Origin: Colwellia sp.
GTDB taxonomy: Bacteria; Pseudomonadota; Gammaproteobacteria; Enterobacterales; Alteromonadaceae
DNA length: 61,011 bases
Direction of reading: 5' to 3'
NCBI GenBank assembly: GCA_022969215.1
Contig: JALJPA010000003.1
Span: 1-61,011, forward strand
Under the pieces are notes generated by a model that searched no databases, had not been told where the DNA came from, and saw only the letters and a program-made list of their open reading frames with translations. A program made the position numbers and the translations under genes. Below are positions 45,761 through 52,139 of the stretch, piece after piece. Numbering within the stretch: position 1 is the stretch's first letter; every line of letters starts with the position of its first letter.

Positions 45761-45789
45761 TTGACTAGGTTAATTTTTTTGATTAACAT
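45761..45789 (+). promoter_or_regulatory. Putative sigma70 promoter of the leader-czcCBA operon
   Basis: TTGACT (45761-66), 17 nt, TAACAT (45784-89); overlapping inverted repeat GTTAAT-N7-ATTAAC. Confidence 0.45.
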
Positions 45790-45830
45790 CTTCCTTCGCA
45801 GGTTCTTATATTAGGGTAAACATAATACCG

Positions 45831-46178
45831 ATGAAAAACACTTGGCTTGGCTTAGTATTAGTATTATTGATTGCATTGCAATCATATGCTGCTGTGGCTA
45901 ATTCAGATGAAAGTCATCAAGTTGACTCACAACATATTCTCACAGAACATTCTCATGATGTTGATGACATTGAACTTTTCGATGAATCATCTGACAGTGA
46001 ACATAATATTAAAGACTGCCATCACTGTGGTCATTGTCAAGGCGCTCATACCCAATGGGTTGCCAGTAACAAATCTGCTTTACCGACACCTCAATTTATA
46101 ATCACCAATCAATATTTCTATACAGACAATTTTGATAAGAGCTTCATTGAAGAGCTTATACGCCCCCCCATTTCTTAA
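45831..46178 (+). CDS. Exported His/Cys-rich small protein with C-terminal RPP (CzcI/DUF2946/CutF-like leader)
   Basis: Signal peptide MKNTWLGLVLVLLIALQSYAAVA; His/acidic tract; DCHHCGHCQG; ends ELIRPPIS; first gene of the metal-efflux operon. Confidence 0.75.
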   Translation: MKNTWLGLVLVLLIALQSYAAVANSDESHQVDSQHILTEHSHDVDDIELFDESSDSEHNIKDCHHCGHCQGAHTQWVASNKSALPTPQFIITNQYFYTDNFDKSFIEELIRPPIS

Positions 46179-46303
46179 TTTAATTTAAAAACTACCCGCA
46201 ACAAACCTTATCTTTAAGCAAAGCTTAACTAAAGCCGAATTTGATTTAGCTTAGTTAGTTTATTTGAGCTTAGTTGCGACATTTTATTGTTAAATTAAGA
46301 GAT
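46170..46303 (+). promoter_or_regulatory. Long nested mRNA stem-loop pairing the leader stop region with the czcC RBS
   Basis: ATTTCTTAATTTAA (46170-83) pairs with TTAAATTAAGAGAT (46290-303): 14 bp with one G-U. Inner helices CGCAAC/GTTGCG, TAAGC/GCTTA, TAACTAAAGC/GCTTAGTTA. Confidence 0.65.
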
Positions 46304-46307
46304 TATT

Positions 46308-47546
46308 ATGAAATTTTTCTCGGTAAAATCTGCTGGCGTAGCGTTATTCATTAGCTACTCGGCAACTATGTCGGTAAGTTGTTTGGCTTTTGCACAAACA
46401 ACTTTATCAAGTGATTGGCTTGATCGACAAATCAATAAACATCCTGATATTGTCTCAGCGCGTGAACTGATGAATGCTGAATTCTCAAAAGCACAGGGCA
46501 GTAAGTTACCACTTTATAACCCTGAATTGTCTACCGGTTATGAGCGAGAAGGTGATGGCAATAACTTTAATATTGGTATTAGCCAAACCATTGATTTGTG
46601 GGATAAGCAGGCCGTTAATGTTGCCATTGGCGATAAAATATTAACCGTAGCTAGTAATCAATTTACTTACGCAGTAGCACAAAAAAAAGCCCAAGCATTA
46701 ACAGCATTGATTAACTGGCAACTTGCCACGGACAAATCGGTACTTGCGTTTGAGCAGGAACAACAATTAGATATTCTGCTAAAAATTGTTACTAAAAGGC
46801 AGCAGGCTGGCGATCTTGGTCCGGTTGATGCTGAGCTGACGTTCTTGAATTTGTCGCAACTACTCAATAAAACTGCGCAAATACAAGCACAGTTAACCCA
46901 AGCTCAAGCGGATGTTAATGAACTACTGCCTGACTGGCGCCCTGATACTCAGGTGTATCCAGAGAAGGGCTTGGGAGTTACAAACTTTCAAGTAGTTGAG
47001 CAGTGGTTAACACAGCATCCGCAAGTATTAGCGGCGCAAGCGCTATGGCAAGTACAAAAAAACATTGCTCAATATGCCATGCTTGAAACCAAAGCAGATC
47101 CTACTATTGGTCTTAGTGCCGGAAAAAATGCTGACGATAATATAGTCGGCATCACCTTTTCTATGCCATTAAATATTCGTAATGACTACCAAGCCAATGC
47201 CAAGGCCAAAAATCAGCAAGCTATCGCCGCAGAAGCGAGTTTTCGTGCGGTTATGCGCAAACAAAAGTATCTGATACAGGCAAGTACCGCGTCATTAATC
47301 TCTAACAAAAAATACCTTGGCCGTTGGCAAGAGTTAATGACAGGGCGTGGCGAAAATAGTGCCCAGTTATTGCAAAAACAATGGCAATTAGGTGATTTAA
47401 ATACCTCTGATTATTTATTAGCGTTACAACAAAGAGCGGAAGGTTTATACGCGGGCATTGAATTACAAGCCCAGTTCAAATTAAGCGAAGTGCAATGGTT
47501 ACTGAATGTCGGCCAATTAAATGTCGCCACTAAGCTATTAAACTAA
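46308..47546 (+). CDS. TolC-family outer-membrane efflux protein (CzcC-like)
   Basis: Signal peptide; HPDI..A, YNPEL, GISQTIDLW.K, R..AGD, HPQV..A, FSMPL..RN; first of the CBA triad. Confidence 0.85.
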   Translation: MKFFSVKSAGVALFISYSATMSVSCLAFAQTTLSSDWLDRQINKHPDIVSARELMNAEFSKAQGSKLPLYNPELSTGYEREGDGNNFNIGISQTIDLWDKQAVNVAIGDKILTVASNQFTYAVAQKKAQALTALINWQLATDKSVLAFEQEQQLDILLKIVTKRQQAGDLGPVDAELTFLNLSQLLNKTAQIQAQLTQAQADVNELLPDWRPDTQVYPEKGLGVTNFQVVEQWLTQHPQVLAAQALWQVQKNIAQYAMLETKADPTIGLSAGKNADDNIVGITFSMPLNIRNDYQANAKAKNQQAIAAEASFRAVMRKQKYLIQASTASLISNKKYLGRWQELMTGRGENSAQLLQKQWQLGDLNTSDYLLALQQRAEGLYAGIELQAQFKLSEVQWLLNVGQLNVATKLLN

Positions 47547-47591: not shown

Positions 47592-48923
47592 TTGTCAAAG
47601 AATTTGGAATTTAAAATGAAAAATATAATAACTGATAAAGTATCTCAAAAAGTAAAAACAATCACTCTAAGCTATCTCTTTACTGGCTTAGCCGTGGTAT
47701 CGACCACTGTGTTAGCCTACAGCGATGCTGCGCTTGAAAATCCGAAACCGGTAGTGCAAACAATAGTGGCACAAGCGGAACATAAACATGAAACTGGCCA
47801 TGATCACGAAAGTGAGCAGAAAGCAGCAGAGGATGAAACTGGTCATGATCATGACAGTGAAAATAAAGCCGACGATGGTCACGGGCATGAAAAGTCTAGT
47901 GAAGAAGATCATGAAGAAGGCATAAGCTTCAGCCCAGAAAAAATGGCCTTAGCTAATATCAAAGTATCTACTCTAAGGGCAAAAATTTTCGCTAAAAGCG
48001 TTTATGCCCCAGGAGAAATAAAAGCCAACGGTTACACCAGTTATATTGTCTCGCCACGTACTGAGTCAGTAGTGATCAGCCGTCACGCTATTTTGGGCGA
48101 ACATGTCGAAAAAGGTCAAGCGCTAGTGACACTATTTAGTGAGTCAATGGCAGACGCACAAGCCGAATATCGTCTTGCTTATAGCGAGTGGCAGCGCACT
48201 AAAAAATTGGGTCTTGGTACAGTCAGTGAAAGCCGTTTATTAGCCAGTGAAACAGCTTATATTACGACCTCTGGTCGGCTAAAAGCCTTTGGTTTAACCA
48301 AAGCCGCCATTGACGATATTGTTAAGAATAATTCATCAAACCTTGGTGAGTATACCTTGGTAGCTAAACGCGCTGGTGCGGTATTAAGTGATGATTTTTC
48401 CCAAGGGCAGCGAGTGATGCCTGGGGATAAAATAATGGTCTTGGCCAACGAAGAAAGTTTATGGGTAGAAGCGCGCGTTTCACCCAATAAGAAACTGAAC
48501 TTACCCGTAGGAACCCTAGCTAAAATTGAGTTTGCTGGCCAAGTACATTTCGCTAAAGTGATCCAAGAAGCACACACCATAGACCCCATTACCCGTACTC
48601 GAATTGTGCGATTGTCCGTTGACAATAAAGATGACACCTTACATTCCGGCATGTTTGTTAATGTAAATTTTCAGTTTGATACCCAAACCCCAGTAATGGC
48701 GGTACCAGAAACGGCATTAATGCGTGGCGCTGATGGTGATTGGACGGTATTTGTTGAAGATCACCCAGGTGAGTTTAAAGCCGTTGAAGTAGAGCTGGGT
48801 CAGCCTTTAGGTCATTACCGTCAAATTATCGGTATTGCCCCTAATACGCGAGTAGTAATCAAAGGTGCATTCTTTGTTGCTTCAGAAATTGCAAAAGGCG
48901 GATTTGATCCGCACGGCCACTAG
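47592..48923 (+). CDS. RND efflux periplasmic adaptor (CzcB-like) with His-rich N-terminal region
   Basis: His/acidic tract; APGEI.AN, G..V.KGQ.L, LWVEA, IDPITRT, GMFV, ends GGFDPHGH. Start TTG 47592 or ATG 47616. Confidence 0.88.
   Translation: MSKNLEFKMKNIITDKVSQKVKTITLSYLFTGLAVVSTTVLAYSDAALENPKPVVQTIVAQAEHKHETGHDHESEQKAAEDETGHDHDSENKADDGHGHEKSSEEDHEEGISFSPEKMALANIKVSTLRAKIFAKSVYAPGEIKANGYTSYIVSPRTESVVISRHAILGEHVEKGQALVTLFSESMADAQAEYRLAYSEWQRTKKLGLGTVSESRLLASETAYITTSGRLKAFGLTKAAIDDIVKNNSSNLGEYTLVAKRAGAVLSDDFSQGQRVMPGDKIMVLANEESLWVEARVSPNKKLNLPVGTLAKIEFAGQVHFAKVIQEAHTIDPITRTRIVRLSVDNKDDTLHSGMFVNVNFQFDTQTPVMAVPETALMRGADGDWTVFVEDHPGEFKAVEVELGQPLGHYRQIIGIAPNTRVVIKGAFFVASEIAKGGFDPHGH
47788..47869 (+). 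repeat. Intragenic 45-nt-period imperfect tandem duplication encoding ETGHDH(E/D)SExKA
   Basis: ATGAAACTGGCCATGATCACGAAAGTGAGCAGAAAGC (47788) and ATGAAACTGGTCATGATCATGACAGTGAAAATAAAGC (47833). Confidence 0.8.
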
Positions 48924-48938
48924 GTAAGGAATGAAATT

Positions 48939-51900
48939 ATGTTTAATAAAATGATTGATTGGTCGATCAATAATCGACTATTGGTAGTTATCGCACTGAT
49001 CGCCACAATGGCGGCAGCTATTATGGTGATCCCCAAGTTAAATTTAGATGCTTTTCCTGACGTAACCAATGTTCAGGTCGCTATAAATACCGAAGCACCT
49101 GGCTTAGCCGCTGAAGAAGTTGAGCAGCTAATTACTTATCCTATTGAAGCTGTGATGTATGCACTGCCTGATGTTGAGCAAGTACGTTCAATTTCAAAAA
49201 CAGGTTTGTCGGGCGTAACGGTAGTTTTTAAAGAAGGCACCGACATTTATTTTGCTCGACAACTGGTCTTTGAACGCTTGCAAGCGGCGAAAGAATTAAT
49301 TCCCCAAGGTGTAGGTACACCAGCCATGGGGCCTAATACCTCGGGCTTGGGTCAAATCTTTCAGTATTTGTTAATTGCTGACAAAGATTCTGGCTATGAC
49401 TCAATGACTTTAAGAAGTTTGAACGACTGGATAGTAAAATTATTAGTTATGCCGGTAGATGGTGTTACCGATGTCTTGTCTTTTGGCGGCAATGTTAGGC
49501 AGTATCAGGTAAACATTGAACCAAGTAAATTATTGTCATATCAGTTAACGCAAGACGATATTGTTAGAGCACTTGAGAATAATAATACCAATGTTGGTGG
49601 TTGGTATATGAACCGCGGGCAAGAGCAATTAGTGATTCGTGGTACGGGTTGGTTTAATAGTGGCGAAGCAGGTTTAGACGATATTAGACAAGTACCAGTG
49701 AAAACCGTTGCGGGTACTGTCGTTACTATTGATGATGTTGCGAAAGTTTCACTGGGCAGTGAGATTCGTCAAGGCGCGGTAACAATGACGCGCAGAGACG
49801 CAGAGGGCAATATTGAAAACTTAGGTGAAGTGGTCACCGGCATAGTGCTAAAACGTATGGGCGCAAATACTAAAGCGACCATTGACGGTATTAGTGCACG
49901 TATTCCTATGATCAACCAAGCATTACCTGAAGGTGTACGTTTTGAACCCTTCTATGACCAGGCTGATTTAATTACTAAAGCGGTTGATACCGTGGTTGAA
50001 GCACTCGCCTTAGCATTTATCTTCATTGCTATCGTGTTAGCGCTGTTTTTAATGAACCTACGCGCCACGTTTTTAGTACTGATTTCAATTCCTATTTCTA
50101 TCGCTATCGCGTTAATGGTGATGTCTTGGATAGGTTTATCCGCTAACTTAATGTCGTTAGGCGGTATTGCGGTTGCTATTGGTATGCTGGTTGATGGCTC
50201 GGTAGTGATGGTTGAAAACATGGTAAAACATCTTAATAGACCTGATGCAACGCATTACGAAAATGCTCAAGCAAGAAATCCAGATACGGATGCTGATCCA
50301 CATAATGCTGCAGATGATGAAGCAGGTATCCCTTTACGATTAAAAGAAGCGGGTAAAGAAGTCGCCCGTCCGGTATTTTTTGCCGCCTCAATTATTTTAG
50401 TGGTCTTTATGCCGCTGTTTAGTTTTGAAGGTGTTGAAGCTAAATTGTTCCAACCTATGGCTATCAGCATTATTTTAGCGGTTGTTTCGGCTATTTTAGT
50501 GGCATTACTTGTGGTACCAGCTTTAGCGACTTATATGTTTAAAAAAGGCATTAAAGAAAAAGAAAGCTTTGTCTTAAAACCACTAGACAAGCTTTATCGC
50601 AAAGGGCTTACAGCGGCAATGAAGCACACTAAAGTAGTTATTGCTGCGTCTGTTTTATTATTTGTTGCCGCAGCCGCTTTAGTACCACAAATTGGTACCG
50701 AGTTTGTACCTGAGCTCGAAGAAGGCACTATTAACCTAAGAGCGACTTTGGCGCCTTCATCAAGTTTGGAAACTGCCTTGTCAGTGGCCCCCATTCTTGA
50801 AGCAATGCTAATGGAATTCCCTGAAGTAGAGTACACCCTAAGCAGAATTGGTCGTGCTGAAATCGGCGGTGATCCAGAGCCGGTCAATAATATTGAAATA
50901 TACATTGGCTTAAAACCTGTCTCCGAGTGGACCAGCGCCAGTAATCGTATTGAGCTACAGGGTTTAATGGAAGAGAAACTTGAACAATTTCCTGGTTTAT
51001 TACTTAACTTTTCACAGCCAATTGCTACGCGTGTCGATGAGTTACTTTCTGGCGTTAAAGCGCAACTTGCGATTAAGCTGTTTGGCCCTGAGTTAGATAT
51101 TCTGGCGAGTAAAGGTCGAGAAATTGAAGCGGCAATCAAAAAAATTGACGGTGCTAGGGATGTTGCGCTAGAACAAATCGCGGGCGAAGCACAACTAGTG
51201 ATCAAACCGAATAGACAACAGCTATCACGATATGGCTTGTCGGTGGGTGATGTTATGGCCGTGGTTAAAGATGGCATTGGCGGCGTTAGTGCTGGCCAAA
51301 TAATTAATGGTAATGAAAGATACGATATTTATGTACGTTTTGAAGAAAAATATCGTGATAACCAAGCAGCTATTGCCGACTTAAGAATACAATCACCTAC
51401 CGGTGCTTGGGTGCGTTTAGGCGATATCGCTACCGTTAGTTTTGAATCTGGACCGCCACAAGTTCGCCGTGATGACGTGCAAAGACGTGTGGTTATTCAA
51501 GCCAATGTACAGGGTCGTGACATGGGCAGTGTAGTCGCTGATATTCGTGCCGCCATTGCCAGTAAAGTGGACTTGCCAGCAGGTTATTCTGTGGTTATTG
51601 GTGGTCAGTTTGAAAATCAACAACGCGCACAGCAACGACTTGCTGTGGTAGTGCCGTTATCACTGGCGTTAATTGCTTTACTACTTTACTTTGCCTTTGG
51701 CTCGGTTGGTCAAGCTATGCTGATATTAGTGAATGTACCATTGGCTATTATTGGTGGTATTTTCGCGCTCTATATTTCGGAGCAATATTTATCAGTACCG
51801 AGCTCGGTTGGTTTTATTACTTTATTTGGTGTTGCCGTGCTTAATGGTGTGGTGATGGTAGAAAGTATTAATCAACTGGTTAAAGACGGTATTGACACCT

Positions 51901-52139
51901 CAACAGCAGTTTTTGATGGCGCAGTATCACGTTTACGTCCGGTATTGATGACGGCTATAACTTCGGCACTAGGTCTAATACCTATGCTGATGTCAAATGG
52001 TGTTGGTGCTGAAATTCAACGACCACTTGCCAGTGTTATTGTTGGTGGCTTAGTAACAGCAACGTTATTAACGCTATTTGTTTTACCAGTATTGTATCCA
52101 TGGTTTTCTAAAACAAAAATTGTCCAACTAACGCGTTAA
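48939..52139 (+). CDS. CusA/CzcA family heavy-metal efflux RND permease
   Basis: LDAFPDVTNVQV, EEVEQLITYPIE, YFARQLVFERL, NLMSLGG.A.AIGMLVDGSVVMVEN, RLRPVLMTA, EIQRPLA. Confidence 0.94.
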   Translation: MFNKMIDWSINNRLLVVIALIATMAAAIMVIPKLNLDAFPDVTNVQVAINTEAPGLAAEEVEQLITYPIEAVMYALPDVEQVRSISKTGLSGVTVVFKEGTDIYFARQLVFERLQAAKELIPQGVGTPAMGPNTSGLGQIFQYLLIADKDSGYDSMTLRSLNDWIVKLLVMPVDGVTDVLSFGGNVRQYQVNIEPSKLLSYQLTQDDIVRALENNNTNVGGWYMNRGQEQLVIRGTGWFNSGEAGLDDIRQVPVKTVAGTVVTIDDVAKVSLGSEIRQGAVTMTRRDAEGNIENLGEVVTGIVLKRMGANTKATIDGISARIPMINQALPEGVRFEPFYDQADLITKAVDTVVEALALAFIFIAIVLALFLMNLRATFLVLISIPISIAIALMVMSWIGLSANLMSLGGIAVAIGMLVDGSVVMVENMVKHLNRPDATHYENAQARNPDTDADPHNAADDEAGIPLRLKEAGKEVARPVFFAASIILVVFMPLFSFEGVEAKLFQPMAISIILAVVSAILVALLVVPALATYMFKKGIKEKESFVLKPLDKLYRKGLTAAMKHTKVVIAASVLLFVAAAALVPQIGTEFVPELEEGTINLRATLAPSSSLETALSVAPILEAMLMEFPEVEYTLSRIGRAEIGGDPEPVNNIEIYIGLKPVSEWTSASNRIELQGLMEEKLEQFPGLLLNFSQPIATRVDELLSGVKAQLAIKLFGPELDILASKGREIEAAIKKIDGARDVALEQIAGEAQLVIKPNRQQLSRYGLSVGDVMAVVKDGIGGVSAGQIINGNERYDIYVRFEEKYRDNQAAIADLRIQSPTGAWVRLGDIATVSFESGPPQVRRDDVQRRVVIQANVQGRDMGSVVADIRAAIASKVDLPAGYSVVIGGQFENQQRAQQRLAVVVPLSLALIALLLYFAFGSVGQAMLILVNVPLAIIGGIFALYISEQYLSVPSSVGFITLFGVAVLNGVVMVESINQLVKDGIDTSTAVFDGAVSRLRPVLMTAITSALGLIPMLMSNGVGAEIQRPLASVIVGGLVTATLLTLFVLPVLYPWFSKTKIVQLTR

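Follow-up and report, generated by a model that had tools for sequence, protein, structure and literature searches.

The closest described system is that of CutF from Rhodobacter capsulatus, a protein of 118 aa with a C69xxxC73 motif and three consecutive prolines (PPP 114-116) followed by R-L-stop. A stem-loop in the 40-bp spacer behind its gene covers up cutO's Shine-Dalgarno sequence (SD), CutF is no longer needed once this stem is mutated, and stalling is induced by copper and sensitive to EF-P (PMC8456105; 10.1101/2022.11.11.516240; 10.1101/2025.02.05.636593). The source of the rule-based definition of CutF-like proteins (Ozturk et al., bioRxiv 10.1101/2022.11.11.516240, identical to PMC9973294) surveyed 5,334 of them and found outer-membrane efflux proteins (CusC/CzcC/SilC) to be the commonest downstream neighbour. 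The mechanism was argued there to be probably widespread, with stem-loop unfolding expected only for short spacers (the CutF group), and for the class lying before outer-membrane factors of resistance-nodulation-division (RND) pumps the survey gives spacer lengths only, with no RNA structure. Among DUF2946/CutF-like proteins only CutF and CruR have been studied experimentally, and they have opposite modes of action. The element considered here lies in a 61,011-nt stretch of Colwellia sp. DNA (the window; assembly GCA_022969215.1, contig JALJPA010000003.1, positions 1 to 61,011, forward strand), where a 115-aa open reading frame (ORF) is separated by 129 nt, on the + strand, from a czcC/cusC-like gene, the spacer folding into one long hairpin. 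With a probability of roughly 60%, this locus represents the output module of a nascent-chain metal switch of the CutF type, heading a heavy-metal RND efflux operon.

Set against the rule-based definition (10.1101/2022.11.11.516240), the Colwellia protein is shorter than 150 residues, has its consecutive prolines within the last 15 residues (P112-P113 of 115), carries as Cys/His motif an invariant CHHCGHC at residues 63-69, for which metal binding is a prediction, and is followed at the spacing given above by an OEP gene on the same strand. CutF and the Colwellia protein are both small (118 versus 115 aa), CutF being exported by Sec and the Colwellia protein predicted to be so from a signal read by eye. 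In each, some 40 residues separate a Cys motif from consecutive prolines, after which come exactly two residues and the stop (PPP-R-L-stop in CutF, RPP-I-S-stop in Colwellia). In both, moreover, the last codons form the start of a stem-loop that occludes the SD of the following gene, for Colwellia according to prediction and covariation (58/64 loci). The switch geometry that an earlier note on this DNA had called CutF-like agrees with the experimentally studied CutF-cutO switch in its PP(P), two residues, stop and SD-shielding stem-loop (PMC8456105; 10.1101/2022.11.11.516240; 10.1101/2025.02.05.636593). The two systems differ in their target (an RND efflux operon in Colwellia, a multicopper oxidase for CutF), in their motifs (CHHCGHC with a His-rich tract and RPP, against CxxxC and PPP) and in their spacers (129 nt in Colwellia and 52-278 nt in its relatives, against 40 bp). 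On account of the long Colwellia spacer, the pairing forms a closing helix over a long range, with an inner hairpin enclosed in it.

CruR (Bp2923) of Bordetella pertussis, the DUF2946 prototype, resembles the Colwellia protein in heading a metal-homeostasis operon and in having an export signal, predicted by eye for the latter protein, and the distance from CXXC to the C-terminal R-(A)-P-P near the stop is 45 residues in CruR and 44 in Colwellia (C66 to R111) (PMC9426467). Of the features typical of DUF2946 proteins such as CruR, CXXC is present twice in Colwellia (C63-C66, C66-C69), while the C-terminus reads RPP rather than RAPP and two residues, rather than three, follow the prolines. CruR acts by Rho-dependent termination on an importer target, with metal relieving arrest and the operon being off with copper, and no SD-masking helix is described for it, whereas SD masking is conserved in the Colwellia family and the target is an exporter (PMC9426467). 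SecM-secA, MifM-yidC2 and VemP-secDF share with the proposed Colwellia switch an exported upstream ORF whose C-terminal arrest holds a ribosome on the 5' arm of a start-masking stem; nevertheless, they respond to secretion pulling force in place of metal and differ in the details of the arrest sequence, which is RAGP in SecM (10.1101/2025.02.05.636593; PMC10502375). No homology of the Colwellia small protein to SecM, MifM or VemP was found. CzcI of Cupriavidus metallidurans is likewise a small protein directly upstream of czcCBA and is grouped as CutF-like (SSN cluster 20), but CzcI and CzcI2 lack the C-terminal proline motif (10.1101/2022.11.11.516240) that is invariant in the Colwellia family.

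The complementarity at the origin of the earlier note is present in the DNA and extends further than the note had stated. Positions 46170-46183 (ATTTCTTAATTTAA) and 46290-46303 (TTAAATTAAGAGAT) are complementary with one U-G wobble, and in the minimum-energy fold the match grows to a closing helix of 15 bp (46170-46184 with 46289-46303). AAGAG at 46297-46301 was correctly described as the only SD-like run ahead of the czcC ATG (46308). Its pairing partner is UUCUU (46172-46176), made up of the final Ile-codon base, the whole Ser codon and the initial base of the stop. The same minimum-energy fold contains the nested inner helices that the note had listed, among them one at 46215-19 and an apical one at 46226-35, and the 138-nt element 46170-46307 forms a single hairpin of -30.3 kcal/mol with about 50 pairs. 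Measured against 200 dinucleotide shuffles (mean -17.3, sd 3.05), this element has a z value of -4.26, none of the 200 being as stable, while for the wider stretch 46150-46330 z is -2.60 and 1/200 shuffles is as stable. A consensus scan of 46179-46307 returned no terminator-like site, as had been claimed, and no sigma-70-like one, an independent promoter inside the spacer being what the note had named as speaking against its proposal. In an equilibrium model of the free mRNA the unpaired probability of the SD is 0.01, so that the czcC start site would be masked there. The Rfam search of the spacer gave no family at E<=1. As the spacer is single-copy in its own genome, a dispersed repeat or miniature inverted-repeat transposable element (MITE) is ruled out as the origin of the hairpin.

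Related loci (n=100, with 64 distinct spacer regions) were collected from 61 related genomes and from a scan of 185,579 species genomes. They come from at least 10 genera (Colwellia, Pseudoalteromonas, Thalassotalea, Glaciecola, Paraglaciecola, Psychrosphaera, Alteromonas, Shewanella, Rheinheimera and others), and their small proteins are 30-96% identical to the one in the window. When the region from 30 nt before the stop to 30 nt after the start was folded to minimum energy, the stop window paired with the start window in 58 of the 64 distinct loci. Spacers measure anything between 52 and 278 nt, and inner sequences show no relationship from one clade to another, yet a hairpin is always present. 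The six non-pairing loci comprise two with a palindromic insertion in the 3' arm, two in which the outer-membrane gene is replaced or deleted, and two that are divergent. The background was taken from 600 same-strand ORF pairs with 50-200-nt spacers in the window's own genome, of which 78 (13%) have at least 5 such bp and only 3 reach 15 bp. Within each 3.3-kb locus, the stop/start duplex ranks among the best 5% of all 25-nt windows in 35/64 loci, with a median rank of 0.04 versus 0.5 by chance. The earlier note had cautioned that the arms are AT-rich and that chance pairing must be excluded; this is achieved by the excess over the control pairs, together with the arm-swap test and the compensatory changes described below. 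Three of the control pairs have at least 15 bp and 17 at least 12 bp, and these are possible further coupling hairpins.

Conservation of the pairing is accompanied by covariation, which the earlier note had held to be expected of a real element and which is found here both in clade-wise counts and in an arm-swap test. For the 28 loci with diverse arms, cognate arms pair with a mean of -9.17 kcal/mol versus -5.76 kcal/mol for swapped ones, the cognate value being reached by 0/20000 permutations. Bases 3' of the stop co-vary with bases 5' of the SD (TAA-TTTAA/TTAAA-TTA, TAA-ATTT/AAAT-TTA, TAA-TC/GA-TTA and TAA-CTT/AAG-TTA), a TAG stop stands opposite CTA (GCC-TAG-CGC/GCG-CTA-GGT), and a further compensatory pair of arms is ATCGTTTAA/TTAAACGA. 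A Val codon, GTT, pairs with AAC in relatives, and over a spacer of 278 nt an alternative SD, GGGGAAG, pairs with CTTCC past the stop (TAG-CTTCC). In the clade with 81-84-nt spacers (alignment A3), 91.7% of cells of an 11-pair helix are paired versus at most 60.5% with the partner slid, and three pairs have changed on both sides in 10 cells, which none of 500 shuffles reproduced. In the window's own clade (alignment A4), pairing amounts to 85% in the closing helix and 83% in the CGCAAC/GUUGCG helix, compared with at most 44% after sliding; three pairs of the latter helix have changed on both sides, and the apical helices are only 48-67% paired. The loci counted are related and some are near-identical across genera, so these counts overstate the independent events. 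When 45 spacers representing all clades were simply aligned with MAFFT, RNAalifold gave no pairs, a null attributed to failure of the alignment, since the 3' arms were shifted by one base between clades and the inner parts lack homology. The clade-wise alignments and the alignment-free arm-swap test were therefore substituted for the all-clade alignment.

The ORF upstream, called a leader in the earlier note, is no short peptide, its 115 codons including a predicted signal peptide. Read by eye, this peptide has a charged start, a hydrophobic core and AVA-NS, and the hydrophobic core and an LQS..AVA motif are conserved in alignment A1. The ORF also contains a His/Asp/Glu-rich tract. With the CHHCGHC pattern as the means of retrieval, 213 relatives were found, and among 60 distinct sequences the distance from the end of this motif to RPP is 40-41 residues in all 60, while the N-terminal part varies in length; the fixed distance is shared by sequences down to 30% identity. 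This protein ruler ends in a PP that is invariant in the 60 sequences and an R that is nearly so (Ile in one clade), with the stop exactly two codons past PP in 54/60. The third positions of the Arg and Pro codons vary among relatives (CCn CCn; CGC, CGT, AGA), which indicates selection on the peptide and not on RNA pairing at these codons. The last codon, on the contrary, is almost always xCU (Ser, Ala or Thr), its CU pairing with the AG of the SD, and it looks as if it were under a dual coding and pairing constraint; the need for xCU to pair with the SD would explain why the final residue is limited to Ser, Ala or Thr. Five ORFs (L003, L019, L020, L029 and L049) have lost the stop through TAA>TAT or a 1-nt insertion and continue for 2-3 extra codons (tails ISYI, ISLI and I-x-YLT). 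In these variants the 5' arm still adjoins the PP codons, which points to the ribosome on PP, and not the terminating one, as the relevant occupant.

By analogy with CutF, we infer a ribosome pause on RPP and its metal dependence, together with the identity of the metal and the polarity of the response. In the free mRNA the closing helix would mask the SD and start site of czcC. A ribosome on Pro-Pro would hold the first 6-8 bases of the 5' arm, including the anti-SD UUCUU, in its mRNA channel, the closing helix would be unable to reform, and the SD would be released for translation of the pump genes. Metal bound to the emerging Cys/His motif may prolong the pause on RPP, so that more metal would yield more pump, a polarity that fits an exporter. 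A ribosome holds about 11-13 nt of mRNA downstream, and with this footprint and Pro112 in the P site (first base 46164) it would reach 46175-46177 and cover the anti-SD. With the Pro-Pro footprint masked, opening the 30S site (-13..+3) is computed to cost 4.2 kcal/mol in place of 9.8 kcal/mol.

Several observations weigh against a CutF-type metal switch. (i) With the 5' arm masked, the unpaired probability of the SD in the equilibrium model rises from 0.01 to about 0.2 only, as czcC codons 4-5 take part in a weak local hairpin; the release is accordingly predicted to be partial, and full freeing of the SD by the footprint is not claimed. (ii) RPP differs both from CruR's RAPP and from CutF's PPP, and (iii) a two-proline motif is a weak pause that is normally resolved by EF-P. 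(iv) The C-terminus of CutF alone was not a strong arrest sequence in a LepB reporter (10.1101/2022.11.11.516240). (v) The helix is opened by every ribosome that translates as far as the stop, and the structure can therefore be explained without a regulated pause. (vi) In metatranscriptomes from three runs of one marine-sediment study, no contig bridges the spacer; the contigs are short, 90-99% alike, cover the small ORF and the 5' end of czcC and may stem from DNA carry-over, and they are uninformative on co-transcription or expression level. (vii) Pfam DUF2946 (PF11162) matches the small protein at 23.0 bits (E 1.4e-4), under its gathering cut-off of 23.7.

This last match spans profile positions 2-90 only, the C-terminal motif region of the profile remaining unaligned, and on the relatives the same profile reaches E<=0.01 in 6/18, none of them scoring over 23.0 bits. 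No NCBIfam model matches the small protein, and a search of its own genome with the PF11162 profile gave no further copy. Nonetheless, homologues are numerous (385 at E<=0.001), and the close ones are labelled 'DUF2946 domain-containing protein' by NCBI and UniRef. The small protein is treated here as a putative divergent marine subfamily of DUF2946.

The main rival to the metal switch is unregulated translational coupling through the same hairpin, an explanation that is unlikely on balance, although it survives better than the other alternatives. The hairpin would mask the czcC start and every ribosome finishing the small ORF would open it, while the small protein would have a periplasmic role of its own (metal binding or chaperoning) for which its RPP end is conserved. 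Since the stop codon lies within the closing helix, the entire 5' arm is covered by a ribosome that terminates, and the inner hairpin would bring stop and start codons together at any spacer length. The authors of the CutF work were themselves unable to say whether the stalled or a second ribosome initiates (10.1101/2025.02.05.636593). What coupling leaves unexplained is (i) the invariant PP two codons before the stop, (ii) the fixed Cys/His distance of 40-41 residues at 30% identity, and (iii) the arm that stays beside PP when the stop moves. Furthermore, mature CutF is rapidly degraded and has no known function in trans (10.1101/2022.11.11.516240).

An improbable explanation is that the hairpin serves mRNA processing or stability, as an RNase III/RNase E target or a protective stem that gives the small ORF and the pump message different half-lives, the SD pairing being incidental. 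In its first description the cutF-cutO stem-loop was said to influence the stability of cutFOG mRNA, of which the cutF end is less abundant (PMC8456105), and the Colwellia hairpin is long, with about 50 pairs. However, only the closing helix and the next one are conserved, the apex, which would form the bulk of an RNase III substrate, varies, and the covariation is concentrated on the stop/SD pairs. Less probable still is attenuation of the CruR type, where the ribosome paused on RPP would block Rho loading and metal would relieve the pause, so that Rho terminates before czcC. CruR belongs to DUF2946, carries a C-terminal RAPP and has a spacer of 162 nt (PMC9426467), and the first half of the Colwellia spacer is C-rich relative to G (14 C and 6 G in 65 bases). 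Against this, the polarity would turn an efflux pump off as metal rises, the spacer is highly structured and only 52-84 nt long in many relatives, too short to offer a typical Rho loading site, and the conserved feature, SD pairing, is unneeded for Rho control. Finally, chance pairing of AT-rich segments or a remnant of a palindromic mobile element can practically be dismissed: the arms are rich in A and T, the genome is AT-rich as well and 13% of its control pairs reach 5 bp or more, and a palindromic repeat is present in the spacer of three relatives, but the z value of -4.26, the 3/600 controls at 15 bp, the single-copy spacer and the pairing with compensatory changes in 58/64 loci all contradict it.

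Returning to the CutF-type switch, sequence comparison presents the locus as a well-supported new example of a known mechanism and not as a new kind. Those refuting conditions of the earlier note that concern the sequence all turned out in favour of its proposal. The RPP motif, the long-range closing helix that makes spacer length irrelevant, and the RND pump as target are modest twists. For the largest CutF-like class, that before RND outer-membrane factor genes, comparative evidence from about 60 relatives now exists for a conserved SD-masking stem, which is anchored to the Pro-Pro codons and spans spacers of 52-278 nt. The locus also offers an easily mutated system for asking whether nascent-chain metal sensing controls heavy-metal efflux. 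Tentatively, the hairpin could act as a length-independent bridge, in which the conserved closing helix, clamped by an inner hairpin that is free to evolve, lets a ribosome paused on Pro-Pro control, or hand over directly to, a start up to 278 nt away, and the His-rich CHHCGHC chain could perhaps be a sensor not of copper but of a divalent metal such as Zn, Co, Cd or Ni. If the former were true, arrest-peptide control would extend past the short spacers assumed by the CutF authors; if the latter were, this would be the first non-copper nascent-chain sensor for an RND pump, in a setting with no adjacent transcriptional regulator.

Table 1. Features of the Colwellia locus, in window coordinates.
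Feature	Position	Strand	Basis
Candidate operon promoter, two overlapping sigma-70-like matches	45761-45812	+	TTGACT-17-TAACAT, TTAACA-18-TATATT (consensus scan)
CutF-like/DUF2946-like ORF, 115 aa, end IRPPIS-stop	45831-46178	+	translation
Putative Sec-type signal peptide MKNTWLGLVLVLLIALQSYAAVANS	45831-45905	+	read by eye
CHHCGHC, putative metal-binding motif, residues 63-69	46017-46037	+	invariant in alignment A1
Arg111-Pro112-Pro113 (CGC CCC CCC), candidate arrest motif	46161-46169	+	conservation
5' arm of closing helix: Ile-Ser codons, stop TAA 46176-46178, six bases past stop	46170-46184	+	minimum-energy fold
Inner hairpin: helix 46186-46190/46282-46286; CGCAAC/GUUGCG 46197-46202/46273-46278; variable apex	46186-46286	+	minimum-energy fold
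3' arm of closing helix, with SD AAGAG at 46297-46301	46289-46303	+	minimum-energy fold
Outer-membrane factor gene (czcC/cusC-like, 412 aa), putative regulated target	46308-47546	+	Pfam OEP 2.2e-19
Periplasmic adaptor (CzcB/CusB-like)	47592-48923	+	Pfam HlyD_D23 1.1e-31; NCBIfam RND_mfp 95.1 bits, above cut-off
Heavy-metal RND permease (CusA/CzcA family)	48939-52139	+	TIGR00914 1034 bits vs cut-off 701

The genes behind the spacer (Table 1) belong to the heavy-metal efflux RND group, the permease scoring over the TIGR00914 cut-off with OEP and HlyD_D23 genes directly upstream of it. The sigma-70-like matches before the small ORF rest on consensus, their number not being above shuffled expectation. 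Downstream of the permease gene lies polA, and upstream of the small ORF the opposite strand encodes a protein with no family match and a DUF4399 protein; the family search of the neighbouring genes found no regulator gene flanking the operon. The nearest public locus is that of Colwellia sp. DT_22, whose small protein is 96% identical. In the permease, residues 413-427 (window positions 50175-50219) form the signature of the fourth transmembrane segment (TM4), AIGMLVDGSVVMVEN, with the pattern AIG..DGS..VEN, whereas the canonical CzcA TM4 probably reads DFG..DGA..VEN. Given this motif, the name 'czc' and the metal specificity of the pump are nominal only.

A palindromic element of about 57-62 nt, which starts with GAATACTGTTCCGCATAAAGAA and folds at -19.6 kcal/mol, interrupts the 3' arm of three Colwellia relatives, flanked there by TTAAAT and AAGAGAT: L003 (1307-1500, - strand), L004 and L007, that is, L031 (Colwellia sp. 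DT_17), L032 (C. piezophila ATCC BAA-637) and L040 (Colwellia sp. TT2012). Five partial copies (31-37 nt, 92-97% identical) occur elsewhere in the window's own genome (C157:16544-16580, C376:17760-17796, C195:4405-4441, C270:3547-3583 and C126:274-304), and the element looks like a small repeat family of the repetitive extragenic palindrome (REP)/MITE-like type. One metatranscriptome contig has an end of the palindrome, TACGGATTGGTA, fused to the start region of czcC.

Loss of the downstream gene is seen in C. piezophila ATCC BAA-637 (L004/L032, NZ_KB905168.1:156626-159970), where the small ORF and hairpin are intact and the czcC ATG is lost (ATG AAA TTT -> AAT AAA TTC); about 25 czcC codons are left before an unrelated gene, and the locus has therefore decayed. 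In L019, czcC is reduced to an N-terminal remnant. At other loci (L008/L041, from Colwellia sp. bin.13b, and L044, L046, L047, L106 and L089) the small ORF is followed by a gene that is not czcC-like in a tblastn comparison, and the products have differing N-termini such as MMKNTLGKK, MTNSMKNH and MSEILLSQ; stop/start pairing is seen in L044, L046, L047 and L106 and not in L008 and L089.

Near-identical small ORFs, spacers and czcC starts (LEAILRPPIS ... MYIYLKNTGLVL; L051-L067, L071-L075 and L079) are found in Colwellia, Cognaticolwellia, Thalassotalea, Pseudoalteromonas, Glaciecola, Psychrosphaera, Psychromonas and Rheinheimera, which suggests that the whole cassette has recently spread horizontally among marine genera. 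Several genomes, for example those of P. distincta ATCC 700518, C. chukchiensis and G017, carry two copies of it.

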